Origin: Macrostomum lignano
Taxonomy: Eukaryota
Assembly: GCA_002269645.1 (NCBI GenBank)
Contig: NIVC01001234.1
Coordinates: forward strand, 1-64,000
Direction of reading: 5' to 3'
DNA: 64,000 nt
A program made the translations under genes and the position numbers. The notes below the pieces were generated by a model. That model searched no databases and was not told the origin of the DNA. It saw nothing but the letters and a program-made list of their open reading frames with translations. Within the stretch, counting starts at the first letter, position 1; the number at the start of each line of letters is the position of its first letter. Shown here one piece after another: positions 43,886-63,835 of the stretch.

Positions 43886-45011
43886 CCCCTTTTATCAGTG
43901 ATTTATTGATATCTGAGTTTGAGCTCCGTCTCTCAAATCCCGGCTTCTTTGACTGCTTTGAGGTATTCGGATTTACTGGTCGATAGAATTGCCGACCGAG
44001 GGACAGCGCCAGAGATCAAAGTCGACCAAAGCTTGGCTCTTTTTTCACTGAACGTGTCTTCATTGCTGTGGGTGTCCTCTGCATGCGTTTTGGGCGTGGT
44101 CGGCCTTGCTGACAAGCCTAAAGAGCAGCAGATGCCGCAGCTCTCAGCTATCTCTCTCCTCTCTCTCTCCCTCTGTCTCTCCCCCCTCTCTCTACTACTA
44201 TCTAGTACTACCAAGTCAAGCCTCACGCCTCATATTAGCCCTGAGGAAGAAACTAAATTACTCGTATTCGAAATATCACTGACGCGTCGTTTGTCAAATG
44301 AGAGAAAACAGACACGATATATTGCGACCGCGATAGTGACAATATTGGGGCGTCGGCGTGCGCGCACAGAGAGTATAAAATAAATAACGTGCATAAAGCG
44401 AATGCGTACAGTTCTGGTATAAGATACAATTGGCTCATGAGTAAATAAATGCTTGTAAATCAATAACTCAAGAGTCTAAATTCATAGATTGACATGCCAC
44501 CTCAATCACTTTGCTTTAACATCTGCGTTATCGCATCAGTGCTTTGGGATTTGAGGACTCTTCCCTCTACCCTCTAGCTCTCTCGTTTCAAAAATGTGTG
44601 CCTACGTACGCATCCGTGTGCTCAGTGGTGAGCACCTTGTCTCCTCACTGGCTGCCGGTCGACCATCGCCTTGAATTGAGGTCGTACGCAAAGGCCTTTG
44701 AAAATGATTAGCTCCTGTGCTCAGGGTGCTGATTCACTGCATAAGAAATAAGAAATAATTGAAATAGCGTCGTTATTAAAATGACAGATGAAGTTGCACG
44801 AGGTACCCACTGGACACCAACTGAAGCGAGAATCGTGACTCGTTCTCAAGCTGCAGCAGTGCATGCGCCCCTGACCCAGTGAGCATTCCCATTGGCTACA
44901 ACGGACTGCCAATCCACTCCATCCTGCTGCTAAAAATTGCACTCAGTGCAGGGCGGATTCGCACTGATTGCCAAGTCCCATTTCAAATCTCAGACATCCG
45001 CAATTCGAGCA

Positions 45012-45785
45012 ATGGCGTCAGACGAAGAGTTGCTGATGGCCTTCAGGGCCATTGACAAGGGTAACACGGGTGTCATCAGTGCAGACGAGCTGAGAGCCTT
45101 CCTATACAAGAAGCGTTACAACGAACTGTTTGTTCAGGTGAGAAAGAAGCTTCAATTTACTTGCTACCCTTACGAGCGTACCTGTAGACATGTTGGTAAA
45201 TTTGACTTGCATGATTTGACAGAAATATTTGCGACTATTCGACCGCAACCACGACGGCAGGATCACTCTGGAGGAATATCAGAACACACTGAACGAGATA
45301 CCCAGAGCGCAGAGGCAGTAAGTGTCATGGGGTTCGTAGCTTGCTTTCGGACTATGGCCATTAAGGGGATTCTTCTGCAAAGCAACCGGGCAGAAGGTGG
45401 ACTTCTACGGATCTATTTACTGATAAAGGGCAGTGTACCTTGAAAAAACTAAACTACAAGGCTAGGATTGATATTATTCTATCTGTTCAACATTTACCGA
45501 GGCTCACAAGCCAGTTGCAACACTAAATCCCCTTTCCCTGCCACCTACGGAGCAATAGTATTCAGGTACAGCCAGTGGCGCCAACTGTTCGAGAGCATCG
45601 ACAAGGATGGCAACGGCTTCATCACTAAGAACGAGCTGCAGGCAGCCGTGCATGAGATGGGTGCCGGCTCTCTGTTTCATATGCGCGACTTCGACCGCTT
45701 CTTTGAGCAGGGCGACTCGGATCGCGACGGTCGGATGAACTATCGCGAGTTCCTGGAGTGGATGAACAAGTCGCAGACGGCCTGA
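45012..45785 (+). CDS. Calmodulin-like calcium-binding protein with four EF-hands (146 aa); exons 45012-45137, 45223-45317, 45566-45785
   Basis: Phase-consistent GT-AG introns. EF loops DKGNTGVISADE, DRNHDGRITLEE, DKDGNGFITKNE and DSDRDGRMNYRE. Confidence 0.9.
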
Positions 45786-46195: not shown

Positions 46196-46355
46196 GGTGT
46201 AGCCAAAAAGTAACGAGAATTGATCGGGGGGCCTCATCCATCACGAGTTTGTGACACAGGGGGCAAACTGTGAATCAGCACTTTCATCGTGAAGTCCCAG
46301 CAAAATTTATGCTGACGATGCGGCGGGTTCGACAGCAACAGGGGGAGAAAGTTTG
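46196..46355 (+). mobile_element. Degenerate mariner relic interrupted by LTR element 1
   Basis: TIR-like CGAGGTGTAGCCAAAAAGTAACGAGAATT, then GLIHHEFVTQ/GQTVNQHFHREV (one frameshift), matching the mariner transposase motif GIVHYEFVPxGQTVNxxFY. The frame continues KV|WKI across the LTR insertion to 57423. Confidence 0.7.
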
Positions 46356-47734
46356 TGTTGTGACCCGGGTCGGCTTGGGTGCCCAGTCCCGAGTACAATA
46401 TATATTATATGTGATATAACAGGCGTTGTGACGCTCTGTCTGTACTTTTATGAATACGACGAGCAGGCGTGGCGACGCTCTGCGATAATAATTCGATCCC
46501 TCTGGTGTTGTGACACTCAGAGTTCACGCTGCGGCTCGAGGTGTGGTGACACTCTCGAGTGCTTCTATTCTCTATACCGTAGGGCGTACGCAATATATAT
46601 GGTAAACGGTACCGTACTACAGAAGCTATATGGTCTCCCGGCGTTATGACGCTCTGGCAAGAATTCGGCCTAGCAAGCTTCCCGAAAAGAAAGGACTCAA
46701 ACAGCAGGCGGCTTACCAGTGGCCAGATGACTGTTCACCGTTTATTATTCGCAGGTCTCAAGCGCAGTTTCCGACTTCTTCTTAATTCTCCAAGACTCTT
46801 CTCGATTAGGCTATTGTGTTTCTTTTATCGAAGTAGCTAATGTTGCTGTTTCTTTTATCGAAGTAGCTAATGTTGCTGTTTCTTTTATCGAAGTAGCTAA
46901 TGTTGCTGTTTCTTTTATCCAAGTAGCTAATGTTGCTGTTTCTTTTATCGAAGTAGCTAATGTTGCTGTTTCTTTTATCCAAGTAGCTAATGTTGCTGTT
47001 TCTTTTATCCAAGTAGCTAATGTTGCTGTTTCTTTTATCGAAGTAGCTAATGTTGCTGTTTCTTTTATCGAAGTAGCTAATGTTGCTGTTTCTTTTATCC
47101 AAGTAGCTAATGTTGCTGTTTCTTTTATCGAAGTAGCTAATGTTGCTGTTTCTTTTATCGAAGTAGCTAATGTTGCTGTTTCTTTTATCGAAGTAGCTAA
47201 TGTTGCTGTTTCTTTTATCCAAGTAGCTAATGTTGCTGTTTCTTTTATCGAAGTAGCTAATGTTGCTGTTTCTTTTATCGAAGTAGCTAATGTTGCTGTT
47301 TCTTTTATCGAAGTAGCTAATGTTGCTGTTTCTTTTATCGAAGTAGCTAATGTTGCTGTTTCTTTTATCAGGTCTCGCGCTTGCACTCTCGGAGCACACC
47401 AAAACACAAAAAGCACGCAGGTGGTGGGCAAGAGCCAGAGTCGCACCATAAATAGCACCCAAACCCTGGGGCAGACGGCCCCACCGGCTAAGCTCACCAA
47501 AACAAACACGCCGGCCCAGCCAATCAAAACCCCGCCTAAGGGGGGAGGGGCAGCACCCGCGCCAAAGCTGGCCCGGCCGCAGCCAACCAGCCCTGAGCAC
47601 GGGGCAGGGGCACGGCTGGGGAGGGGCACGCGCAAAGCCCGGCCGGCGGCCAAACCCTGCCACGCCCGCCAACCCCCCCAACCAGCCCCAAAGTGCAACG
47701 CGCCCTGCCAACTGACAAGGGCGCATGCACTACA
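46356..47734 (-). repeat. 3' LTR of element 1 (1379 bp; 18 copies of an internal 30-bp unit)
   Basis: Direct repeat of 56191-57418; preceded on minus by the polypurine tract AGGAGGGGAGGG (47735-47746). Confidence 0.97.
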
Positions 47735-47989
47735 CCCTCCCCTCCTAAAAAAAACAGGGCGGAGCTCGAACCACGGCGACTGGGATTTCAAATTTCAAAT
47801 AACACAGCAAAAAAAATCAAAAACAACAAAAAATTGGAAACACACTAATGCAAAGGGGAAAAAGAAAAATGGTTGCCGCAAAAGAAATATAAAAAAAAAT
47901 ACTGGTTTTCTGCACGCAAGTTCGTCAGAGCAACCACGGGGCACGGAATAGGCTTTACATCAAAGCTGGCGCCACAGAAAACCATCGCA

Positions 47990-48660
47990 GGTGGCCGGCA
48001 GGACGCGCAGGTGGCCGGGCGGGACGCGCAGGTGGCCGGCAGGAAGTGCAGATGGCCGGCAGGGCACGCAGGTGGCCGGGCGGGACGCGCAGGTGGCCGG
48101 CAGGAAGCGCAGATGGCCGGCAGGAAGTGCAGATGGCCGGCAGGGCACGCAGGTGGCCGGGCGGGACGCGCAGGTGGCCGGCAGGACGCGCAAGTGGCCG
48201 GCAGGACACGCAGGTGGCCGGCAGGAAGTGCAGATGGCCGGCAGGGCACGCAGGTGGCCGGCAGGAAGCGCAGATGGCCGGGCGGGAAGCGCAGGTTGCC
48301 GACAGGAAGCGCAGATGGCCGGGCGGGAAGCGCAGGTTGCCGACAGGACGCGCAGATGGCCGGGCAGGAAGCGCAGGTTGCCGACAGGACGCGCAGATGG
48401 CCGGCAGGGCACGCAGGTGGCCGGCAAGATGCGAAGGCGGCCGGGCGAGGCGCGCAGATGGCCGGGCGGGAAGCGCACGTGGCCGCCGCAGAAGCCGGCA
48501 GGAAGCGCACGTGGCCGCCGCAGAAGCCGGCAGGAAGCGCAGGTGGCCGCCGCAGAAGCCGGCAGGAAGCGCACGTGGCCGCCGCAGAAGCCGGCAGGAA
48601 GCGCACGTGGCCGCCGCAGAAGCCGGCAGGAAGCGCAGGTGGCCGCCGCAGAAGCCGCTG
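47990..48660. repeat. GC-rich ~20-bp tandem array (GCAGGTGGCCGGCAGGACGC variants) in the element 3' UTR
   Basis: Visible; lies between the J-domain ORF stop and the PPT. Confidence 0.93.
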
Positions 48661-48776: not shown

Positions 48777-49724
48777 CTAGCGAACCCGAAGTCCAGGGAG
48801 ACCGACGCAGCTTTTCAGGACCTCGAGCAGCCTGCCGGGCCGGCGCAAACCGAACAGCGGGATGAGCTCGTGACAGAGCTGTCGGACGAAACAATCAAAA
48901 CTCTGCCTAGACCAGTAACGGCGGCCTGCTCTCTGACGCTTTACCGGAGCGATATCTCTGCGGATGAAGAACAACGCCTGCAGCAGGACCATTGACAGTG
49001 CGCTCCTCGGTTCTCGCTGCGAGTCTCGAAACAGCCGTCTCATAGCCGTGAGCACTGACACGATTCCGTCCGACTGTCCAGCCAAAATATGCTTCATCAA
49101 ACGATGGCGGAGCTGACGCGCAGCTGCCGATAACGACAGCTTTTCATCATCCCATATTGCTCCCGACGCGCGATGTGAGACAACCTCCTTGCTTTCCGGT
49201 ACATCGATCTCCATAGCTTCTGACTCACTACTTCCGGAGGAGCCATCCGATGCCAGCAACTCGTCTTCTTCTTCTGTGTCGATGCTACACTCATCCGACT
49301 CCTCGCTCTCATCGTCGTCCGAGATTAGAATGTAGCCATCCGCTTCGTAATCGTTCCTCTGTCCCTGTCTCCCCTGCCTGAGACCAGCTTCCTTGCGCTG
49401 AGCTTCTTCAACTTCTCGCCTTTGCTGTACTCCCTCTTCGATGTCCGCCGGCATTCTTACACCAGTAGGAGGTATGAACGTCATTGCGAAGGTTACAGCC
49501 TCGTCATACGGGATTGATTTATCGCCCAACTGGTCGTACATCGCTCGGCGATATGGACACGATAGAATTCTACCAGCAGTCTCAATTTCTTGGAAACGGC
49601 GTCCTGCGAGTTCCTTGTCCGGGTGCTTGTCCGGGTGCCAGAAGAGCGCTAGCTGTCGATAGACTCGCCTGATCTCGGCACGTTCGGCTGTGTGTCCGAC
49701 TTGGAGGACAGCGTACAAATCCAT
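48777..49724 (-). CDS. J-domain (DnaJ/Hsp40-type) protein of 315 aa encoded inside the LTR retrotransposon
   Basis: MDLYAVLQV...AEIRRVYRQLALFWHPDK...RFQEIETAGRILS...RRAMYDQLG gives J-domain helices I-IV with an intact HPD (49629-49637). An acidic tract and an unassigned ~120-aa helical-looking C-terminus follow. Intronless and on the same strand as pol. Confidence 0.88.
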   Translation of the reverse strand: MDLYAVLQVGHTAERAEIRRVYRQLALFWHPDKHPDKELAGRRFQEIETAGRILSCPYRRAMYDQLGDKSIPYDEAVTFAMTFIPPTGVRMPADIEEGVQQRREVEEAQRKEAGLRQGRQGQRNDYEADGYILISDDDESEESDECSIDTEEEDELLASDGSSGSSESEAMEIDVPESKEVVSHRASGAIWDDEKLSLSAAARQLRHRLMKHILAGQSDGIVSVLTAMRRLFRDSQREPRSALSMVLLQALFFIRRDIAPVKRQRAGRRYWSRQSFDCFVRQLCHELIPLFGLRRPGRLLEVLKSCVGLPGLRVR

Positions 49725-49959
49725 CTGCAAAGCAACGTACTCAAACCTGCGACACACTGTCCCTGACTCCAGATTCTACTCCTGCTCCCCTCTTGCCAGA
49801 GCGTCATCTCCTCGGACCGTGGCCCGCGGTACCTGCATCGTAAAGTCCCAGCGCAAATTCGAGTTGTCACCGGATGCCAGTCCGAATACCCTCCACCGAT
49901 GCATAGATTTTGTAGGCAAAATTTGATTCTCGTCAAAACTTCGATGAAGATGCGATTAA

Positions 49960-50146: not shown

Positions 50147-53100
50147 TTAGAATGTCACTGGCTGGCCGTAGCGATCCGGCGGCCGTCGCAACCTTCCGGA
50201 CCTTCGAGGCTCAGGTGCAGCTTCCACCGGGTTATGAGTAGGCTGCGGGTCGTCAACCAACTCCATCTGCTCTTCCAGCACCTCGGCGACTTCCTCAGCG
50301 TCCTGTGGCGGCATCAGTTGAGGCCGAGTCCAAGTCTCGCATTCCGCATCTGCCTCCGAGTCCGTCTCGTCGACCACTTCCGGCGGTGCCGCGGTCCTAA
50401 CTGGTGTTTCCAGGGCGGCCGGTCGAGCGAACTTCCGGAGGTTGTTGAAGTGGACGAACTTCGACTTTTTACGATTTGACGGGTTTTCCACTTTGAAGAG
50501 CACCTCGGATCTTCTTTCGAGCACCTTCACTGGGCCGAGCCAGCTTACGTGAAACTTTGCGGCTTCGTCTGGTTTCAGGGCGGGGCTGTAGACGAAGACA
50601 TGGTCACCCTCCTGAATATCGGATCCTCGGGTTCTTTTATCGTACTGGTCCTTCTGTCGCCGCTGATAAGTATTCAACTGCTGTCGAGCAGCGCGATGAG
50701 CTGTCTGCAATTTGTCTTCTAGCTCCTTGACGAAATTTACATGCGAATCGACAGGCTGTGGCGGCTGGTCAGTCAAGTCTATCGGTAGGCGCATCTCCGT
50801 GCCATAGACCATGTAGTGGGGAGTATAACCCGTTGCTCGATGCACGCTTGATCGGTACGCCATTAACGCAGAGCTGACGAATTCTTCCCAGTCGTTTCGT
50901 CCTGAGTCCTCTAGGCAGCACTTGAGGATGGATTTTAAACTTTTATTGAAGTTTTCTACTTGTCCATTTCCGCTCGGATGATAAGCTGTTGTTCTGGACT
51001 TGCGGATCTCGAGTATCCTGCACATTTCGCGCATCACTTGCGATTCGAAGTTTCTTCCTTGGTCACTGTGCAAAGTACTCGGACACCCATGCTGGCTAAT
51101 CCATCGATTGAAAAGCGCCCTTGCCACCGTCCTTGCCTTCTGGTTGCGAAGCGGGTACGCGTCAGGCCACTTCGTAAACGAATCTTGGACTGTCAGGAGA
51201 TAAATGTTTCCAGCCTTACTCCGCGGTAGCGGCCCGACAATGTCCATCATGACGCAATCGAATGGTGCTGCGAATGTCAACGGTTGCAGGGGTGCTCGGT
51301 TTCGCTTGCCCGGCTTTGACTTGCAGCAGGTGGCACAACCGCGAATATATTCTTCAATGGCACGAGACAATCCTGGACGCCAGTAGCGCTGAAGCACTTT
51401 AAATTTTGTCTTCGCAAAGCCCATGTGGCCACCTCCCACTCCCTCGTGTAGGGTTTTCAAGATACGATCCAATGCCTTTCGTGGCAGCACCATTTGATAC
51501 TCATCGCGCCTGTCTTTGTTTCTCACAAGGAGCACGTTCTCTTGCAGCACCAGGTCGTCTTTTCGAGTCCAGACGGCTCTAGCCAGTGGACTCCAAGCTG
51601 TCTCGCTTTTATCTGGAACTGGGTTTGAGCCAAGCGCTTCCTTTACTGTTCTCAAATCGTCGTCTTGATCCTGCTCGCTTGCCAGATTGCCGGCTGAGAA
51701 TCGTTCAAATTCGACTGCATTTAGTCCTTCTGGATGCTGCGCACATGCCGGGCATGTCTCCGCTCCGAAATGTCTCCGTACTGGCTTCCTCGACATTGCG
51801 TCCGCGTTGCCATGCGATCGACCTGGTCTGTGAACGATGCGGTACTGAAATGGAGCCAACTCTCCAACCAGCGAGCAACCTGTCCCTCGGCGTCACTGAA
51901 GTTTTTTAACCATTGCAGGCTGCTGTGGTCCGTTCGCAGACAGAACGCTTTTCCAAGCAGATAGTATCTGAACTTCATGATGAAAGTCACAACCGCTAGT
52001 AGTTCTAAACGAGTCGTACAATAGTTGCGTTCGGCTTGATTTAGTGTCTTGGACCCATAGGCGATCACTCGTTCTGCTCCATCTGGCTGGACTTGAGAAA
52101 GTACCGCTCCTATGCCCATCTTCGAACTGCCATCAGTATCGAGGATAAACTCTCCGGCATCCGGGGAGAAATCCGGATGAGCCATAACCTCTGAACTTGT
52201 CATTCGTTCCTTCAATGTTTCGAACGCCAGCTGCTGTTCCGTTTTCCATTCAAACTTTGCGTCTTTTGTTGTCAATCGAGTTAGAGGCGCTGCTATTGCG
52301 GCGAAATCTTTAATAAACTTTCTGTAATAGCCACACAGGCCCAAGAATGAATGCAGCTCCGTCGAGGATCGCGGTGTTGGCCAGTTCTTCACTTCTTGAA
52401 CTTTCTCCTCATCGGTACTGATGCCAGCAGCCGACAGCGTGTGACCGAGAAATTTCACTTGCTTTTGCAAAAAGTGACACTTCTGGGGCTTCAGGCACAA
52501 ATTTGCTTGCCGCAACTTGCTGAATATTTCCTCCAGTCTTCTCAGGTGTTCATCCACGTCGGTTGACCAAACCAGTAGATCGTCGATGTAGACGAGACAG
52601 GTTTTCCACATCTGCTTGTCCAGAACGGCTGCCATCAACCTGGTGAATGTTGCTGGGCTGTTCACTAAGCCGAACGGCATAACCTTCCATCGAAATTGTC
52701 CGCGATGCGGCACTGCAAACGCCGTCTTGTCCTGATCCTGAGGTCTCACCCCTACTTGCCAAAACCCGCTGTGAAGGTCCATTGTCGAGAAGATCTTGGC
52801 GCCGTGTACTGCCTCCAGCGCATCATCGACCCTCGGCATCGGCACTGCATCCTTGACGGTGACCTCATTCAACTTCCGATAATCGACGCACATCCTCATT
52901 TCCCCTGATTTCTTCTTTACACACACCAAAGGAAAGCACCATGGTGACTGTGCTTCTTCGATCTGCCCCTTTTCCAGCAACTCGTTGACTTGACGATCTA
53001 CTTCTGGCTGTAAGTGGGGAGGCAGACGACGCGGTGGGATCTTGATTGGGCGCGCATTCTCGGTGTTAATTTCATGCTCCACCACGGTAGTTAACTTGCT

Positions 53101-55058
53101 TGAAGTCTGCTTGGTCGTGAACACATCGCTGTAACTCCGGACAAGGATTCTAAATTCTTCGTCTTCTTTCGTCGACAGTCCACAGTCGCCGTACGAGTTT
53201 GGTAGCAAGTCTGCTTCCGAAGGGCTGTTGCTGCCTTGGACCTTCGGCTCTTCCTGTGGATCGTCTCCTGACTCTACGGCTAAGAGCTTGATGGTGTTCA
53301 ACGGTTCGGTGGATTCTAGGGGGCAGAACCACCCGAGCGTACAACCTTGGCGAATTCTGACTGGCTCCTCCGTGATATTGATGAGTCGAGTCGGCAGACG
53401 GCTGCCGCTATTTGGGATCACTAAGGCCTTAGCAAGCCAGCGGCCAGCTGCCAAATCGTTCGCCCGAGATTCTCAGTTAGGCCGACACACCCTCTGTTCC
53501 GTCGTCCTTTGCTCTCCAGCCTTGCTGACAGAACTGCTTGATGACCTGGCGGTATTGTGCTGGACCTTGTCGCCAAAATTCTGCAAACGATCGGGCGCTC
53601 AGCTTGCCATCGGAACGGGATTGCAGTGTCCTGCACTGAAAAGACAGCTGTCTTGTAGTCGATGACGCAACTGTTGTCCCTGCAGAAGTCGGATCCCAAT
53701 ACCAGTTGGTACTTCACTCCGCTGACTACCAAGGCTGGAGTATCTATTACTTTATCAGCGATTGACATTCGCAACAGGACTGTTCTCTCGATTTCGATCG
53801 GGCTGCCGTTTGCTAAGCTAACGTAGCCTTCAGCACCGGCCAAATCTCTGACGCTCTGTTTCGGCATACTTTGGTAAGCTTCCCGTGAGATAATGGTGCA
53901 GGAAGCTCCCGAGTCCACTAGCGCGTTCACCCTCCGCCCTGCGATTGAGGCCGTAACATATATCGACGCAGGATTGATTTGAATTGACTGAGGTGCGTTG
54001 ACGGTGATTGGGCGCTGCGACTGTGCAAAACCGGCTAGTTGATGGTGAGGTGCAGTACCGGACGCTGGAGGCTGATGAGGCACTGTACCGGACACTGGAT
54101 GCTGATGAGACGCAGTACCGGACACTGGAGGCTGATGAGACGCAGTACCGGACACTAGAGGCTGATGAGACGCAGTACCGGACACTGGAGGCTGATGAGA
54201 CGCAGTACCGGACACTGGATGTTGATGAGGTACTGTACCGAACACTGGATGCTGATGAGACGCAGTACCGGACACTGGATGATGAGACGCTGTACCGGAC
54301 ACTGGATGCTGATGAGGCGCAGTACCGGACACTGGATGCTGATGAGACGCAGTACCGGACACTGGAGGCTGATGAGACGCTGTACCGGACACTGGATGCT
54401 GATGAGGCGCAGTACCGGACACTGGATGCTGATGAGCCGCAGTACCGGACACTGGATGCTGATGAGGTACTGTACCGGACACTGGAGGCTGACGAGACGC
54501 AGTACCGGACACTGGAGGCTGATGAGACGCTGTACCGGACACTGGATGCTGATGAGGCGCAGTACCGGACACTGGATGCTGATGAGCCGCAGTACCGGAC
54601 ACTGGATGCTGATGAGGTACTGTACCGGACACTGGAGGCTGATGAGACGCAGTACCGGACACTGGATGTTGATGAGGTACTGTACCGAACACTGGATGCT
54701 GATGAGACGCAGTACCGGACACTGGAGGCTGATGAGACGCTGTACCGGACACTGGATGCTGATGAGGCGCAGTACCGGACACTGGATGCTGATGAGCCGC
54801 AGTACCGGACACTGGATGCTGATGAGGTACTGTACCGGACACTGGAGGCTGATGAGACGCAGTACCGGACACTGGATTCTGATGAGACACAGTACCGGAC
54901 ACTGGAGGCTGATGAGATGAAGTACCGGACACTGGATGCTGATGAGGCGCAGTACCGGGCGTTTGATGATGATGAGATGAGATGACGGCTTGTTCGGAGG
55001 CTGACGAATTGCAGGGGCTCACTTGCCTCCAGCTGGTGGGCCCCTCTTGCCTTTTCCC
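50147..55058 (-). CDS. pol: pol of element 1: transframe linker with minisatellite, protease, RT, RNase H, integrase (two 1-nt frameshifts, ~53440 and ~51860)
   Basis: Protease ALVDSGAS, RT LVYIDDLL, RNase H FILDTDGS...TDHSSLQWL, integrase HHCC (H...GHMG...CATC), D,D(35)E core (MMDIVG...SDQGRNF...VENFN) and GPY/F-like LGPVKV. Confidence 0.95.
54060..54965. repeat. 30-bp in-frame minisatellite encoding (HQHPVSGTAS)n in the gag-pol linker
   Basis: About 30 copies; frame-preserving unit. Confidence 0.95.
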
Positions 55059-55939
55059 GGCTTTGGGCACTGGAATGAGAGATGGCCTATCTCCCCGCAG
55101 TTGTAGCACTTGACACCGCTACGCTGCTTCGAGCTGGACGGAGCCGCCTGCTTGGATTGTTGCTTGTCTTGAAGGCCGGGTTCGGGCGGCTCCTGCTGGC
55201 CCTGCTGCATCTGCTCCATCCGTCGGATCTTTTCTTCCATTTCCTTTACTTTTTGACGCAGTTGGCGTAGCTCCTCGTCTTTGCCGGTGTCACCTGTCGA
55301 CGTTTCGGTGGCAAAGGCATTCAGCCCAGCCCTGGGTCTGGCTTTGGACTGGGTCGAAGACGCCTTCTGGGCTGCTTCAAGTTGTCTTACTGTTCGAATG
55401 GCATCGGTGAGGTTGGCCGGCTGCTGCAGGTACAGTCTTTCTCGGACAGTGTCGGTTACTCGAACGCCTTTTAGAAATCTGTCTTTCGCCAGCTCTGTCC
55501 TGGTGTCGGCATCCGCGGTGGGGAAGGCATTGCGCACCAACTCCAGCAGCTCGTCCCCGTAGGTCTCCACAGACTCCTTGTCTAGCTGATCTCGATTCGA
55601 TAATTCAAAACGGTAGTCCTGGGCTGTTCTGTTCATGGTGAACCGCGCCAGTAGTGCATCCGTGAATTCCCCGTACTCGATGTCGTCTGCCAAGTCCAGC
55701 TTATCAACGGCAGCGTAGGCTGTTGTGAGGTCGAGTAGGCCGATCAGGTGCGGCCGCCTGGCTTCTTCTTCTATACCGACAGCCTCGCAGTACTCGTTGA
55801 AACTCTGCAGCCATAGGCTGAAATTCATCGTTGGTATGTACTTGGGCGGCTTCGAGAGTCGTGGCGCTGCTCGGTCGGCGTTGGCTCTGAGGCGCGCAGC
55901 CAGCGCATCGATCAGTTGGTCCATAGCTTGATCACCCAT
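55019..55939 (-). CDS. gag: gag of element 1 (306 aa) with CCHC zinc knuckle
   Basis: ATG in GCCATGG context; retrotransposon capsid-like core and CYNCGEIGHLSFQC. Confidence 0.93.
   Translation of the reverse strand: MGDQAMDQLIDALAARLRANADRAAPRLSKPPKYIPTMNFSLWLQSFNEYCEAVGIEEEARRPHLIGLLDLTTAYAAVDKLDLADDIEYGEFTDALLARFTMNRTAQDYRFELSNRDQLDKESVETYGDELLELVRNAFPTADADTRTELAKDRFLKGVRVTDTVRERLYLQQPANLTDAIRTVRQLEAAQKASSTQSKARPRAGLNAFATETSTGDTGKDEELRQLRQKVKEMEEKIRRMEQMQQGQQEPPEPGLQDKQQSKQAAPSSSKQRSGVKCYNCGEIGHLSFQCPKPGKGKRGPPAGGK
55052..55058 (-). promoter_or_regulatory. -1 ribosomal frameshift slippery site G GGA AAA with a downstream stem
   Basis: X XXY YYZ heptamer in the gag frame; the -1 frame is the pol ORF (GKRQEGPTSW). 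A 6-nt spacer is followed by an AGGGGC...GCCCCT stem. Confidence 0.8.
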
Positions 55940-56140: not shown

Positions 56141-56187
56141 GACTTTCAATCTGAGGGTCCAGGGTTCGAGTCCCTGTTCGGGCGCCA
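56141..56187 (-). promoter_or_regulatory. Primer-binding site for tRNA-Lys(UUU), extended to 47 nt
   Basis: Minus strand TGGCGCCCGAACAGGGAC starts 3 nt from the LTR; the plus strand reproduces the tRNA-Lys 3' half from the anticodon arm through CCA. Confidence 0.9.
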
Positions 56188-56190
56188 ATT

Positions 56191-57418
56191 TGTTGTGACC
56201 CGGGTCGGCTTGGGTGCCCAGTCCGAGTACAATATATATTATATGTGATATAACAGGCGTTGTGACGCTCTGTCTGTACTTTTATGAATACGACGAGCAG
56301 GCGTGGCGACGCTCTGCGATAATAATTCGATCCCTCTGGTGTTGTGACACTCAGAGTTCACGCTGCGGCTCGAGGTGTGGTGACACTCTCGAGTGCTTCT
56401 ATTCTCTATACCGTAGGGCGTACGCAATATATATGGTAAACGGTACCGTACTACAGAAGCTATATGGTCTCCCGGCGTTATGACGCTCTGGCAAGAATTC
56501 GGCCTAGCAAGCTTCCCGAAAAGAAAGGACTCAAACAGCAGGCGGCTTACCAGTGGCCAGATGACTGTTCACCGTTTATTATTCGCAGGTCTCAAGCGCA
56601 GTTTCCGACTTCTTCTTAATTCTCCAAGACTCTTCTCGATTAGGCTATTGTGTTTCTTTTATCGAAGTAGCTAATGTTGCTGTTTCTTTTATCGAAGTAG
56701 CTAATGTTGCTGTTTCTTTTATCGAAGTAGCTAATGTTGCTGTTTCTTTTATCCAAGTAGCTAATGTTGCTGTTTCTTTTATCGAAGTAGCTAATGTTGC
56801 TGTTTCTTTTATCCAAGTAGCTAATGTTGCTGTTTCTTTTATCCAAGTAGCTAATGTTGCTGTTTCTTTTATCGAAGTAGCTAATGTTGCTGTTTCTTTT
56901 ATCGAAGTAGCTAATGTTGCTGTTTCTTTTATCCAAGTAGCTAATGTTGCTGTTTCTTTTATCGAAGTAGCTAATGTTGCTGTTTCTTTTATCGAAGTAG
57001 CTAATGTTGCTGTTTCTTTTATCGAAGTAGCTAATGTTGCTGTTTCTTTTATCAGGTCTCGCGCTTGCACTCTCGGAGCACACCAAAACACAAAAAGCAC
57101 GCAGGTGGTGGGCAAGAGCCAGAGTCGCACCATAAATAGCACCCAAACCCTGGGCAGACGGCCCCACCGGCTAAGCTCACCAAAACAAGCCACGCCGGCC
57201 CAGCCAATCAAAACCCCGCCTAAGGGGGGAGGGGCAGCACCCGCGCCAAAGCTGGCCCGGCCGCAGCCAACCAGCCCTGAGCACGGGGCAGGGGCACGGC
57301 TGGGGAGGGGCACGCGCAAAGCCCGGCCGGCGGCCAAACCCTGCCACGCCCGCCAACCCCCCCAACCAGCCCCAAAGTGCAACGCGCCCTGCCAACTGAC
57401 AAGGGCGCATGCACTACA
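56191..57418 (-). repeat. 5' LTR of element 1 (1228 bp; 13 copies of the internal 30-bp unit)
   Basis: Matches 46356-47734 apart from array copy number and three small indels. Confidence 0.97.
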
Positions 57419-58414
57419 TTTGGAAAATATTATTTAAGACCGTCCAAAACAGACTGCTGTTGAATTCTTTAAACGGATTTAGCAAAAATTTGCTAGATTG
57501 GCTTGGTTTCCGGTCTCCGGTAGCACTCGTAGTTTAACAAAACACCAACTTGCTTCATAGGAAATTCTTAAGTCCTGGTGGTAAGATATTGTCAATTTGT
57601 CAAATCAAACGATTTCCTTCTACTTTAGCTGTCCATGAAGTGCATCTTATCAGCAATAAATTTTTGCAAATCGTCCATACTACACGCGTACTGCACTGCA
57701 CTGAAAGTCAACTTCGAAAGTAAAGTACGAGCGAGTGTCACAGAATTAATTTTGTTTAAATAAACCAAGTATTGAGCAAAACGCAGCAGAAACGAGTTTT
57801 TGATTAACAGAAAAGTTTACTACTGAAGTCTCTGGCTTCAATTGTCTGTCACTGTACTCGACGCAAAGCAGCATGCGATTACAGTTGTCCTTGTACTGAG
57901 CTGGACTGATGAAACTAAGAGAATTTTCATGAGAATTTTCATGACATTTAAATTAATAAGTTTACAAAACCAACATTGCATCAAGCTCGTGCTGGCGTAC
58001 CCCAGAGAACTTTGCACGCAAAAATATTTTCGGAAACTATTCTAAGAAATCTCATTTTGAATTGAACTTGTGCTTATTGAATTCCGTTACAATTTGGTTC
58101 CGAATAGGAAATGTTTGATCTGGACTTCCGAATTGCTACTTGATCAAGAAGGCGCTTTGTCCGAGGTTCGCTCACCTTATTGTCGAGCTGTGACTCGCCT
58201 AGCTGTGACTACCGGAAATGTCACTGGAGATTGGAAAGCAAGCAATGCTCCAGCTAAGTCTCAGTTCTCCTACCTGCTTAGTTGTGTTGCTATAGCCCAA
58301 TTCTACTCGCGAAAGAGTTTTGTCCATGGTAAAAATAATATGACAATCAATGTCAAATATTTGCAAAATCCATTCCGAGAGCGTTTTTCCGGTCTTCAAT
58401 AATTGTTTTGCTGC

Positions 58415-61400
58415 TGTTGCATTCTTGTAAATAAATAAGAATGATATTGATTGTCCAAGGCTCCTAACTGAGCCAAAACCAAGAAAACAAGTATCGCCCT
58501 CTGGCGCGCACCAGGTCTATTTATAGACTTATCAAAAATGGGGTGGCACAAAGAAAAGTCCACCGTCACACCCTCCACCAAAAGATCGAAGCCGGAAAAA
58601 TCGCAAGCCAAAAATCAATCGCAGGGTCACGCAAAGTTCGGATATGTCTTACAAAAAAACAATGCAAACTTGGCCACTAACGACTTTAATAAAAGTTAAA
58701 TCGCTCAGTCAGTCTCTAAATCACTTGGTCAGTCACTAAATCACTTGGTCGGTCACTAAATCACTTGGTCGGTCACTAGCCCAGATCCTGCTGAGACCAT
58801 CGGCCACCGTGTTGCTTTCGCCTGGCTGGTACTGGATCTCGTAGTCATAGCCGGACAGATAGAAGGCCCACCGCTGGAGTCGTGGGTTGGCGTGGTCCAT
58901 CTGCAGGTACTGCAGCGGCTTATGGTCGGACTTGATGACGAACCGGCGGCCTAGCAGGTAGTGCCGCAGCTTCTCGACCGCCCAGCGCACGGCGAGGCAC
59001 TCCTTCTCGATCGTCGTGTAGCTCCGCTCCGCCGAAGTCAGCCGCCGAGATACGAATAGCACGGGATGGATGCCGTCCTCGAACTCTTGCGTTAGCACCG
59101 CGCCGATCCCAGTCTCCGAGCTGTCAGTCTCCAAGGTGAACTGCCGACTGTAGTCCGGCGCGCGCAGCACCGGCTCGCTCGCCAGCAGAGATTTCACAGT
59201 CTCGAAGGCTCGCGTCTGCTGCTCTCCCCAGGCCGCCGTCAGGTCATCGGGTGCCGACTTCTTTGTGAGGTCCGTCAGGGCCGCCACCTTTTCTGAGTAA
59301 TCGGGCACGAACCGACGGTAGTGGTTGAGCACTCCGAGCACAGATCGCAGCTGAGCCTTGGTCCGGGGCTGAGCCAGCGCCGTGATTGTCCGCACTCGGT
59401 CCTCGCTTGTACCGATCTCGCCTCCGCCGAGCTTGAAACCCAGGTAGTCAGCAGAGTTGCCGCCCAGGTAGCACTTTCGGGTTGCACCGTTAGACCGGCA
59501 GCCTTAAGGCGACCGAATACTTCCCTCAGGTCCTCGACGTGCTGCTCGAATGTCGCGCTAAACACGGCGATGTCATCGATGTAGGAGTCCGCGTTGTCCA
59601 GCCCTTGGAACAGCTTGTCCATGAGCCTCTGGTACGTCGCGCTGCTGCAGTTTAAGCCCATGGGCATCACAGTAAATTGATACAGCTTGCCGCAGGCCGC
59701 GAAAGCCGTCAATCGCTTTGAATCCTCGTACAGTGGAATTTGCCAGTAGCCCTTGCAGCAGTCCAGCTTAGATATGAACTTGGCCTTGGCGACCCGCTCC
59801 AGTAGGTCCTCGATGTTCTTCATCGGATAGGAGTCGAAGGCCACCAGCTCATTCAGCGCCTTGAAGTTGACAGTGAACCGGACTGAGCCGTCCTTCTTGG
59901 CCACCAGACAGACCGGGGAGCAGTAGTCACTGTCAGATGGTTCGATCACCCCGAGGTCCAGCATGCGTTGAATCTCCTCTTGGAGCACCTGCCGATGCGC
60001 CTGCGGCTCCCGTCGCGGCCGGATGCGCACTACGCGGTCAGATGTCGTCCGGATACGGTGCTCCACTAGGTCAGTCCTGCCCGGGATCTCGCTGAAGACG
60101 CCCGCGAAGTCCTGCACCAGCTGCAGAAGACGATCTCTCTCGGCCGGTGTCAGATGTTCGGACAACTCAGGAGCACTCGTAGCTGCCGCTGGAAGCTGCA
60201 TCAAAACCGCCTCTCGTGAATTGTACTTCTTAAGCAGGTTGACATGAAACGTGTTTGTCGCAGGGCCCATCCGGATCCGGTAGTTCACATCGCTGCACCT
60301 CTCCAGTACTTCATAGGGACCGCGCCATTCAGCGTGAAGCTTCTTGGATGACGATGGCAGCAGCAGCAGCACCTTATCTCCGGGCTGCAACTCTCGTTCC
60401 CGCGACTGCCGGTCGTACCAGAGTTTCTGACGCTTCCGTGCTAGCTCTTCGCTGTTCCGTGCCGCTTCCTGGCCAGCCCGCAGTCGGTCTCTCTGGGCCA
60501 GCACGAACGAGATGATGTCCTTCTTCTCTTCGGAGAGCTGCTCATCCCAGGTCTGCCGCAGTAGATCTAGCGGGCCCCGCACAGTGCGTCCATACAAAAG
60601 TTCGAATGGGGAGAAGCCAGTTGTTTCGTTGGGCACCTCCCGAATGGCGAACAGCAGATACGGTAGGTACTGGTCCCACTTCTTTTTCTCGCGAGCTGGT
60701 AGTCTCCTCAACATGTTCTTGAGAGTGCCGTGGAACCTCTCCACCAACGCCTGGCTTTGCGGATGGTACGGCGTCGACTGGATGCCCTCGACCCCGGTAC
60801 ACCGGTACAGGGCCTGCAGCAGTGCTGATGAAAAGTTAGTACCCTTATCGCTCTGGATCTCCCTCGGGAATCCGGTCCTCACGAAGCAGTCCACCAATGC
60901 CTTCGCTACGGACTCAGCGTCGATCTTTCGCAGCGGGACTCCTTCGGGGAATCGAGTAGCCGCATCGATAATCGACAGGATGTACTGGTGACCACTCGCA
61001 GTCCTCGTATACGGTCCACTGATATCGATGATAACTTTGGTGAAGGCCTCCTCCACTCCAGGCACTTGGACTAGTGGCACCTTGTGATTGCCTGGGACTC
61101 GAGCCGTCTTCTGACACTTGTCGCACGTTGCTACGAAGTCCTTCACGTCCTTTGTCATCGTTGGCCACCAGAATCGCTGTTCCAGTCGTTGACAAGTCTT
61201 CCTTGTTCCCAAGTGGCCAGCGAATGCACTCTCGTGGGCCTGGGACAGCGCCGTAGCACGCAGAGCCTTCGGAAGCACCAGTTGGTCCTCTCCAGCTGCT
61301 TGATGCCGAAACAGTCTGCCGCGGCTTTCCTTCACCAAGTCGTTGGTTTGTACCGCTGCTTGCAACTCCTTGTCGTCTTGTAGGGCCGCCTCGTAATCCA

Positions 61401-63169
61401 ATGTTATAGGGCGCATTGCAGTTTCTTGTCTCGTTTTGTTGTACTCTTGCCGTTGTTTACGCGCTTGGGCTCTAGTTATTCTTGATTTTGTTTTGCCAGC
61501 CGGCTCCGGATCGATCTGGTTAAGGCCGCTAGCCACGATGCCCTCCGCGAAAAGCCTCTCGTCCCCCTCTGACTGGGGCATTGGGCGGTGCGGCGCACCC
61601 ACCCCTTCTCTCTCATTGGCTGAGAGGGGTTGGCCGTGGACCCCCTCGCGCGTCTCTCTGCCAAGCACTGTACTCGGGGCGTCTCCACCCCCCAACTTGA
61701 GCTGGCTAATCAAATCCAGTCCAACCAGCGCGCTTACGGGTAGTGAGTCAGCCACACAAACCTCAGTGGTTCTATTGTAGCCCTTTAGGTGCAGCTCCAC
61801 TTTAGCGATTGGAAGACGGTGTAGGTCGCCGCCAAAACAGCGCAATAGTGCATGATGTCCTGTCCAATTAATGTTTTCAGGTAGACAGCTACGCCGAATC
61901 GTAGTTCGATCAGCTCCAGTATCCATCAGGAACCGCAGTTCTTTGCCATCCGCATGTCCGGTGATGAACCTGCCCGAAGCAGCATCCATAGCTCTTTCCT
62001 CTGAGGCCAAGTGGACATTGGCGGGCTTGTTGGTACACTGAAACTTCTTGTGGGGGCCTCCGCAGTTGAAGCAGCTAATCTTAGGCTTTAGGCTTTGCGG
62101 TCTCTGAATCGTCCTTTGTTTATCCATAGCATTGGACGCCGTCGCCCCCTCAGAGGTCTCTTGGCTCGGGTGTCCTGGTGTTCCGCCGCCCTTGTCGCTG
62201 TTTCTTGCCATTGCGTAGTCATCGGCCAGTTTCGCAGCCTCTTTGATGTCCTTCGGTTTTCTCTCTCGCATCCACACCTGGAGTCCTCTTGTCAGAGAGT
62301 CCGTAAACTGCTCCAGAAGCACTTTCTGCCTGACGATGGAGTCGCCACTTATCAGTTCCTCTCTCTGATCCTCGTCCAGCCCAGCTGTCATCCATCGGAC
62401 AAACAGGTCTTCCAGCTTTGTCGCGAACACCTGGAAGGTCTCTTCAGGCGCCTTCCGCAAAGACCGAAATCGCTGTCGGTAGGTCTCCTCGCCGATGTTG
62501 TATCTCGCTAAGATGGTCGCCTTTGCCAAGTCGTAGTCCGCGCTCGCCGCTGACGTCAGACTGTGGAATGCGCTCTGCGCAACGCCCGTCAGTAGCGGTG
62601 CCAGCCGAATCGTCCACTCTGACTTTTGCCATCCACACGATGCCGCTGCCCTTTCGAAGGTCATCAGGAATGCCTCGATGTCATCAGAGTCCGTCAGCTT
62701 AAACAGCTTGGGCTCCGCTGCTTGTGGTCGTGGCTTAGACTCGGCCAGGAGCTTTGTGAACTCCGCTTGTTGACGAGCCAGTTGCTCCAGGTAGAATGCT
62801 GACTGTCTTTCTTGCGCGCGAGTCATTTCTTGTAGCTGCTGACTCTGGTGCGTCAGGAGCATCTTCATTGTCTCCATCAGATTCGCGCCCTCCAGCGTAG
62901 CTGAATCTTGGATTCCGCTGGCTTCTTCAGCATTGTCTTCGGAGCCTTCTCCGAGCGCCCCGTCTTGGGAACGCAGGTTGTACGGGTGCTTCGAGCCCGC
63001 ACCGCTGCCACCATGTTGCATTCTTGTAAATAAATAAGAATGATATTGATTGTCCAAGGCTCCTAACTGAGCCAAAACCAAGAAAACAAGTATCGCCCTC
63101 TGGCGCGCACCAGGTCTATTTATAGACTTATCAAAAATGGGGTGGCACAAAGAAAAGTCCACCGTCACA
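58415..63169 (-). mobile_element. Gmr1-like Ty3/gypsy LTR retrotransposon 2 (4755 bp)
   Basis: Identical 156-bp LTRs (58415-58570 and 63014-63169; TGTGA...CAACA), 5-bp TSD GCTGC, tRNA-Leu PBS (63000-63013), PPT-like GGTGGAGGG, and PR-IN-RT-RH domain order. Confidence 0.95.
58736..63021 (-). CDS. gag-pol: Single gag-pol polyprotein of element 2 (SCAN-like capsid, zinc knuckle, protease, integrase, RT, RNase H; one frameshift ~59475)
   Basis: DDIEAFLMTFER...LAPLLTG...YRQRFR capsid/SCAN-like region; CFNCGGPHKKFQC; FLMDTGAD; HHCC and DDE integrase with WRGPYEV upstream of RT (SYIDDI); RNase H LETDSS...SDHKPL. Confidence 0.93.
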
Positions 63170-63835
63170 GCTGCGCAACCTGTGACCCACTCTTGGACTA
63201 GACCGCGCACTTCCTCTTCGATTTTGCGATTTGGTGCTAACGAATGGGAAACTTGAGAATTACCGGCCTACTAACTTAAGTGTGATTGAGACTCCATGAG
63301 AATTCCTTGTCGAGCAAAACAAAACATGACCAGGTTGCTTGATTTAGTGAGGCATGAAAATGGTCTCAAATTATTTTCCAGCTTGCTACTCGTAGACATC
63401 TAGACAAGCGAGTGTTTGATGCTTCACCACAAAGCCTTTGTGCTTGGACGAACAGCAACGCAAGCTTGAGGTCGATGCGTCGCTTCACCTCACTGCGTTT
63501 TAAGAAAAAATTTCTGCCATATTGATTGACTCCTGGATTCACAACGGCTTTGAGCAACTCGATGGGATATTTTAACAGAAATTGACATCAAAAGGTTGCT
63601 GCCAGCTGTCCGTTCGATCCGAATCGAATCCAAACCGAATCGCCCTGCCGCCTTTGAGCCGCCGCGTCAGTCGAGTTTCCCGTTCTGACTGATAATTGAT
63701 TGTTTTGGGAGGAGCCGGCGCCGCTCCGTCGGCCTTAAATCCCAATCACCCTGCGTGTTGCGCTTCCCAAACCGCTATCCTTAGCCGAGAGCCGAGTCTG
63801 TGAATCCCCAGACTGGAGTTCCTTATCGCAGTGAC

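Follow-up and report, generated by a model that had tools for sequence, protein, structure and literature searches.

Some Ty3/Gypsy retrotransposons are known to carry a third open reading frame (ORF3) that is not env, and some viruses encode J-domain proteins. Bdelloid elements encode a DEDDy exonuclease or a GDSL protein as ORF3 (PMC5408684), and an orchid Gypsy element carries an AlkB third ORF (PMC9289625). In the accessible portions of these reports such ORFs are typically expressed from a spliced message; neither main text mentions DnaJ. The Gypsy-type element Cer1 of C. elegans encodes a non-env accessory protein, CERV, which according to the accessible text is made from a spliced mRNA and acts on the RNA of Cer1 itself within the nucleus (PMC10309623; neither DnaJ nor Hsp70 occurs in the text). 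In the accessible part of a 2026 review (PMC13254874), phages and polyomaviruses are the only elements for which encoded J proteins are named, and a transposon-encoded one is absent from it (0 matches to "transpos"). Polyomavirus T antigens and phage Rki combine an N-terminal HPD-bearing J domain with element-specific sequence (PMC13254874, PMC3486835), an arrangement that presumably aims Hsp70 at chosen complexes. Plant SILENZIO and DNAJ1/2/3 (SDJ) couple a J domain to a chromatin reader, as host genes with separate reader proteins (10.64898/2026.09.14.751395, accessible part).

Here we analyze a 64,000-nt stretch of Macrostomum lignano DNA (assembly GCA_002269645.1, contig NIVC01001234.1, positions 1 to 64,000; hereafter the window) that holds a Ty3/Gypsy element whose ORF3 resembles each of these systems in part. 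Like the bdelloid and orchid ORFs it is a family-specific extra frame after pol, captured, and gained or lost among lineages; unlike them, it is predicted to encode a J-domain co-chaperone whose helical domain has no match. It shares the N-terminal J domain, HPD and presumed Hsp70 targeting of T antigens and Rki, but differs from T antigens in having neither a helicase nor an origin-binding domain, no sequence or fold link to them, and an LTR retrotransposon as its carrier. Like CERV it is a non-env accessory protein, for which a nuclear role may likewise apply, and in one sister family (D) a reader and a J domain are joined in one element-encoded chain, unlike the plant systems. No transposon-encoded J protein was found in the open literature searched (outside Repbase/GyDB), including the accessible parts of PMC5408684, PMC6338049, PMC9289625, PMC10309623, PMC13254874 and PMC12801592, the last being an M. 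lignano LTR survey whose accessible text and supplements mention no J protein.

A Very Young Ty3/Gypsy Element With a Third Gene in the env Position

The element extends from window 57418 to 46356 on the minus strand and comprises the following features.

46352..46355, no strand: target site duplication (TSD), left copy, 4 bp
46356..47734, minus: 3' LTR, 1,379 bp, with a 30-bp minisatellite
47735..47746, minus: polypurine tract (PPT), abutting the 3' LTR, read from sequence
47957..48660 (approximate limits), no strand: GC-rich 20/21-nt minisatellite in the ORF3-PPT interval
48777..49724, minus: ORF3, 315 aa, J-domain accessory protein (P0001)
48780..49139, minus: five-helix C-terminal domain, residues 196-315, conserved
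49140..49364, minus: acidic linker, predicted disordered, residues 121-195
49533..49721, minus: J domain, residues 2-64, HPD at 30-32
49725..49739, minus: candidate 3' splice acceptor (pyrimidine-rich, CAG), abutting the ORF3 ATG, putative
50147..51892, minus: integrase frame (H2C2, rve, p58_C)
51721..53472, minus: reverse transcriptase (RT)/RNase H frame
53421..55118, minus: protease frame, including a 30-nt coding minisatellite
55019..55939, minus: gag (Retrotrans_gag/PNMA-like below cut-off; one CCHC knuckle)
56170..56187, minus: primer-binding site, read from sequence, which we take to be a tRNA-Lys match
56191..57418, minus: 5' LTR, 1,228 bp
57419..57422, no strand: TSD, right copy, 4 bp

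Direct LTRs (TG...CA), TSDs on both sides, a primer-binding site and a PPT are all present, and frames and Pfam domains place Gag (CCHC), protease, RT/RNase H and integrase in Gypsy order, which excludes the integrase-before-RT (Gmr1) arrangement. The LTR pair differs by 1 substitution and 153 gap columns (three single-base gaps plus five 30-bp minisatellite units, i.e., 150). Within the 5' LTR we found a TATA-like motif at LTR position 281, AATAAA at 839 and one donor-like GGTAAG at 868. A 422-nt spacer separates the integrase stop (50147) from ORF3, and PPT-like tracts also lie 227-716 nt past ORF3 in families C, D, F and H (below). The primer-binding site extends as a tRNA-like stretch (window 56142-56187) of ~45 nt vs the usual 18, and neither ARAGORN nor Rfam reports a tRNA in this region. 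Elsewhere in the window, a second Gypsy element (58736-63267, minus strand) has a SCAN domain in gag and integrase before RT, a Gmr1-like order, and exons of an EF-hand, calmodulin-like host gene lie just past the 3' LTR (44934-45785, plus strand; by eye, from translations).

ORF3 Encodes a Class C-Type J-Domain Protein by Domain Content

Pfam DnaJ (PF00226) matches residues 2-64 of ORF3 over its full 63-position model (E = 5.5e-18; 65.3 bits vs a cut-off of 27.8). In an AF2 model the J fold is followed by a long helix, then by the acidic linker, which is disordered, and finally by a compact C-terminal domain. The model superposes on solved J domains at an rmsd of 0.9-1.7 Å (best short alignments; no Foldseek row reached E 0.001), and the basic residues of helix II align with those of the solved domains. 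Charge is partitioned along the chain, with 27 D/E vs 4 K/R in the linker and 24 K/R vs 7 D/E in the C-terminal domain, which has a basic RRxW loop. The class A/B features (G/F region, zinc finger, DnaJ_C) are absent from ORF3, and DnaJ is the sole Pfam domain. By domain content ORF3 is a class C-type J-domain protein, and stimulation of Hsp70 ATPase is predicted. No polyomavirus T-antigen domain other than the J domain appears in the Pfam result, nor an LxCxE motif by eye. No membrane segment or signal peptide is apparent either: the maximum 19-residue Kyte-Doolittle mean is 1.33 and N-terminal windows are ~0, which together with the soluble helical model indicates that ORF3 has no env features.

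The five-helix domain (pLDDT 85.6) has no known family or fold match, which does not amount to a new fold. Pfam gave nothing significant in 6 members, and Foldseek nothing at E ≤ 0.001 against PDB and BFVD. The best VIA-align hit (Z 8.1, rmsd 4.1, 107 aligned) was rejected as within the generic helical-bundle range. An Atlas lead (0.76) to DnaJ-X (PF14308; Djp1/Caj1-like) was not reproduced with family B, and PF14308 matched none of 6 members; the window's genome likewise gave no PF14308 match, in a search whose control was equally silent.

The original prediction, of an uninterrupted 315-aa frame on the pol strand between the integrase stop and the PPT/3' LTR of a TSD-flanked element with near-identical LTRs, encoding a complete HPD-bearing J domain without signal peptide or transmembrane segment and hence not env, agrees with these results throughout. 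For the C-terminal part, where it had looked to structure prediction, a compact domain was obtained and a known fold was not.

Family A Is Young, and the pol Frame Breaks Are Not a Family Trait

Searching the window's genome with ORF3 returned at least 127 matches, a lower bound since 126/252 candidates were scored. At least 21 span the whole of ORF3 at 99-100% identity (family A), and 20/21 have no stop. All 30 of the top family-A loci fetched match the window element, so that the ORF does travel with the same gag-pol/LTR family, and among 17 3' flanks checked, 16 yielded flank and 15/16 are distinct insertions. Within family A, 14/21 ORF3 copies are DNA-identical, and we count 8 distinct non-synonymous or stop changes vs 4 synonymous ones, the expectation for unselected post-insertion changes. 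These copies are so young that the intactness of ORF3 alone says little.

An intact ORF3 beside a pol with two apparent frameshifts had been offered as an argument for retention. Both breaks are present in the window copy, but of 15 other integrase matches at 99% identity, 9 sit within open frames of 1,488-1,682 aa, and 4/4 public runs have one-base indels relative to the window near both breaks, with no listed difference inside the J ORF. The frameshifts are a peculiarity of the window copy or its assembly, not of family A, and because the family does not share them the contrast shows no differential selection. Contigs of 3/4 public runs bridge ORF3 and the integrase end, which argues against the chimeric assembly that the original prediction had raised as a concern. 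One 99%-identical family-A integrase (G000:C33:1033838-1035556) has no ORF3 match among the matches listed nearby (deleted, or not scored). A public 3,375-aa "J domain-containing protein" (P0029, UniRef100_A0A1I8G8I7) is 100% identical to ORF3 over 313 aa; its gene model splices element sequence, including an integrase C-terminal piece, into a longer prediction.

Seven Families Share a Core and Vary in Added Domains

In seven families (A, B, C, D, F, G and H), the integrase is followed by ORF3 or a homolog of it. Integrases of the other families are 42-54% identical to the window's over aligned parts, and the ORF3s of families A-D share 25-32% identity. In representatives of B, C, D, F, G and H integrase sequence lies just upstream on the same strand, and further copies show the same adjacency by coordinates. 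The frame has 327 aa in B, 293 aa in C (at least 14 full-length open matches), 328 aa in D (17 full-length open matches), 283 aa in F and 558 aa in H (at least 9 copies, in 571-aa open frames), and is broken in 4/4 G copies fetched (L061, L063-L065). The common core consists of a J domain, a short helical extension, an acidic linker and the five-helix domain, whose RRxW-ending basic loop is found in A-D. The helical domain of F and H is weakly similar (hhalign probability 21-25%), and H is linked through G at 33-34% identity over about 400 aa. HPD is kept in 6/7 families (A, B, C, D, F and G) at 25-35% overall identity, and in 5/5 of the J-bearing outside homologs used; family H has lost it and retains a J-like fold and the helical domain.

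In family D a chromodomain lies within the linker that joins the J domain to the helical domain (Pfam Chromo, E = 1.4e-12; L033:3495-4478, L046:1731-2441). The only PDB match of the D2 chromodomain is Swi6/HP1, and aromatic residues occupy what we take to be the cage positions. Three such aromatics occur in D2 and only two in D. Pfam Chromo is also found in an outside protein (P0034). Chromoviruses are Gypsy elements with a chromodomain too, which in them ends the integrase, but in the present lineage it lies inside ORF3 of family D only, and no Chromo match was found in integrases across the 4 frames scanned.

Families G and H carry an extra C-terminal TatD-like domain (L060:158-1834, L061, L063-L065; Pfam E 1.6e-7 to 0.02, with 1/4 frames above cut-off). 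The domain is probably inactive because one conserved His aligns to Gln; the other TatD metal-ligand positions in G and H are presumed ones.

Among 8 related elements fetched for lack of a J match, 4 belong to H, 1 holds a TatD-like remnant (L058:1338-1880, where it alone is left), 2 lack ORF3 and 1 is interrupted by a LINE-like ORF. A family-D-related element has a LINE-like endonuclease ORF after the integrase (L052:1013-3201; by eye), and a deleted family-F copy without integrase has RT/RNase H fused in frame to ORF3 (L048:861-2999). On the integrase tree, which like the ORF3 tree is poorly resolved, ORF3-less elements are sisters of ORF3-bearing families. Relatives without ORF3 nested among those that bear it imply that ORF3 is dispensable, and together with the HPD-less family H they imply that not every member of the lineage needs Hsp70 recruitment. 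The placement of the ORF3-less elements fits either a single early acquisition followed by losses or an exchange of modules. Between A and its subfamily A', integrase dS is 0.17-0.27 vs about 1 for ORF3, which suggests that ORF3 modules have been exchanged between related elements. Loci L028 and L029, which suggest the same, are ~92% identical to the window in integrase DNA and ~69% in ORF3.

ORF3 Evolves Under Purifying Selection

Between subfamilies, dN/dS (Nei-Gojobori) is 0.11-0.28. For A vs A' it is 0.11 in the J domain, 0.16 in the linker and 0.24 in the helical domain (dS 1.0-1.9), and comparisons in B, B2, D and F give 0.15-0.28 (B vs B 0.25; B vs B2 0.24; F vs F 0.23; D vs D2 0.20-0.28 in 3/5 segments, with 2-3 D comparisons saturated). 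The most conserved segment in B is the helical domain (0.15). One very young pair, C vs C, gives 2.3 on 8 differences; we saw no sign of positive selection in the pairs tested. On these ratios ORF3 is an old accessory gene under purifying selection, consistent with the capture and retention originally predicted and with neither the neutral decay nor the one-off retrocopy that had been named as contrary outcomes.

The best host DNAJ match to ORF3 is 45% identical and covers the J domain only. Host loci with J-only matches (L034, L040-L044) are ordinary DNAJ genes without helical domain or integrase, and no host gene with the helical domain was found among the matches examined. One of these loci is an apparently intronless DNAJB6-like gene (L034:3510-4520), with similar matches on three contigs. 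In a J-domain tree (36 rows, 73 columns), 14 element sequences cluster apart from 22 cellular J domains with low support (2 changes vs 11.3 when shuffled), and a single element clade is not rejected (p-AU 0.52). The tree thus yields the separation from host DNAJ genes and no donor of the J domain.

Outside this genome, a helical-domain profile found 10 matches among 1.84 billion representatives, 7 of them genuine; the other 3 (P0035-P0037) were discarded as weak matches to repetitive proteins. Five of the 7 have both J and helical domains; the records of P0006 and P0032 contain no J part. Among sequences found in the window's genome, identity to P0006 reaches no more than 55%, which implies that the ORF3 protein family extends to other samples. 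A word-indexed search with P0001 gave 4 J-only matches alone, one with family-H residues 120-558 gave none, and scans of metagenomes and viral contigs found no DNA loci of the outside homologs.

A Candidate Splice Acceptor Adjoins the ORF3 Start

The last nucleotides of the spacer form a pyrimidine-rich CAG that abuts the ORF3 ATG. A YAG lies 0-1 nt before the ATG in 4/7 families (A, B, D and F), and at a distance of 7 nt in H and 16 nt in C; the examined G copy has no ATG there. The background frequency at 0-1 nt is 197/2,941 ATGs (6.7%), giving a binomial P of 6e-4 for 4/7 in a post hoc test. Because YAG adjoins the ATG, these data suggest that ORF3 is expressed from a processed mRNA, by env-like cis-splicing or by spliced-leader trans-splicing. 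The latter is common in M. lignano and resolves polycistronic RNAs, according to the accessible part of PMC5730564. Two observations count against processing: 4 host DNAJ genes checked also have YAG 2-6 nt before the presumed start, and in 4 public runs the contigs continue across the proposed acceptor, showing neither a joint nor a loose end. Such contigs omit rarer forms, may derive from DNA and carry no information on level or strand; the 24 runs listed include no recorded RNA run with this sequence.

ORF3 as a Putative Hsp70 Adaptor

ORF3 is a captured third gene: it sits in the env position, is conserved and is under purifying selection. We propose that a J-domain gene entered this Gypsy lineage by capture in an ancestral element and was retained as a separate third gene, which would probably be translated from a processed subgenomic mRNA through the acceptor just before its ATG. 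In established J-protein biology, an HPD-bearing J domain brings Hsp70 to the binding partners of the remaining chain, and from fold and motif we consider it probable that ORF3 in general recruits Hsp70, its J domain docking the host chaperone and triggering its ATPase, as viral J proteins recruit Hsp70 (PMC13254874, accessible part). The basic five-helix domain would place ORF3 on its client, with help from a chromodomain or a TatD-like fold in some families. That client would most likely be nuclear, namely the element's own chromatin or RNA, and Hsp70 would then remodel host complexes that otherwise silence the element or retain its RNA.

The chromodomain and TatD-like domains of the sister families tilt the evidence toward such a nuclear chromatin/RNA role, and chromatin- or nucleic-acid-directed modules, a basic helical domain and no membrane anchor together favor a nuclear adaptor. 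Against it, the window's own family A has neither a chromodomain nor a TatD-like domain, and we rate ORF3 as a nuclear Hsp70 adaptor at the element's chromatin or RNA slightly below an even chance. Precedents exist, in the accessible parts of the sources, for J proteins acting in both silencing and anti-silencing at methylated chromatin in plants (10.64898/2026.09.14.751395) and for export of Cer1 genomic RNA by a spliced nuclear accessory protein (PMC10309623). A more elaborate version is unlikely, namely a modular anti-silencing factor with a swappable reader, in which the helical domain, HP1-like chromodomain or dead TatD would aim Hsp70 at heterochromatin or RNA-silencing complexes, released by spliced-leader trans-splicing from an element that would be a small operon.

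One alternative, to which we give a minor share, is that ORF3 is a cytoplasmic assembly chaperone bringing Hsp70 to Gag or Pol for folding, RT activation, particle assembly or uncoating. An intact J domain under purifying selection suits this reading, as does the fact that some reverse transcriptases and capsids need Hsp40/Hsp70. Viruses also encode J proteins for their own folding needs (PMC13254874, accessible part); however, the chromodomain and TatD-like fold are hard to explain by particle assembly, and close relatives lack ORF3.

It is rather unlikely that the helical domain is the working part, a nucleic-acid- or chromatin-binding scaffold to which the J domain is structural or optional and Hsp70 not required. 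Family H, with its helical domain and J-like fold but no HPD, would be explained, as would the strong conservation of the helical domain in B, and Arabidopsis JDP1 works without HPD (10.64898/2026.09.14.751395, accessible part). Yet HPD is otherwise kept in all families, dN/dS in A vs A' is lowest for the J domain, and it is the helical domain that is only weakly similar in F and H.

As a decoy, ORF3 would rival host J proteins or draw Hsp70 away from the loading or stabilization of PIWI/Argonaute, and so weaken small-RNA silencing generally. Planarian DNAJA1 binds and stabilizes SMEDWI-2 (PMC11663942, accessible part), and fast divergence with domain shuffling among families would fit an arms race. 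A pure decoy needs no conserved helical domain or chromodomain, however, and with positive selection unseen in the pairs tested we think this quite improbable.

Help to the element under heat stress, indirect and similar to phage Rki in raising chaperone output, or a benefit to the host, is very unlikely. Some LTR families of M. lignano are heat-induced (PMC12801592, accessible part), and MligTCv3c-15711.0, a DnaJ-only transcript with no listed human homolog, is mildly so (log2FC 1.2; PMC12801592 supplement 2), but the canonical heat-shock element (pattern from PMC12801592) occurs 0 times in both family-A LTRs, and none was found in the fetched loci of other families, which partly cover their LTRs. 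The Pfam score of this transcript (65.2) is close to that of ORF3, and it may be ORF3; a short ORF3 motif was not found in five supplements of PMC12801592, where text may be wrapped or cut.

A neutral passenger, i.e., a recent retrocopy of a host DNAJ in a young family with many DNA-identical copies, is most improbable given seven divergent families, J domains that cluster apart from host DNAJs and a helical domain absent from the host matches examined, and is ruled out by dN/dS well below 1 at dS near 1 unless divergent pairs are misaligned.

Implications for Retrotransposon-Host Interactions

To our knowledge, animals offer few examples of counter-defense or regulatory proteins encoded by transposons. 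The present Gypsy lineage, recently active in a regeneration model that is tractable to transgenesis, has retained a J protein under purifying selection and shuffled reader domains onto it. It would provide a way to ask which host complexes Hsp70 must remodel for a retrotransposon, with HPD-less, chromodomain-bearing and ORF3-less sister families as natural controls. For the M. lignano genome itself, many apparent DnaJ genes are transposon cargo.
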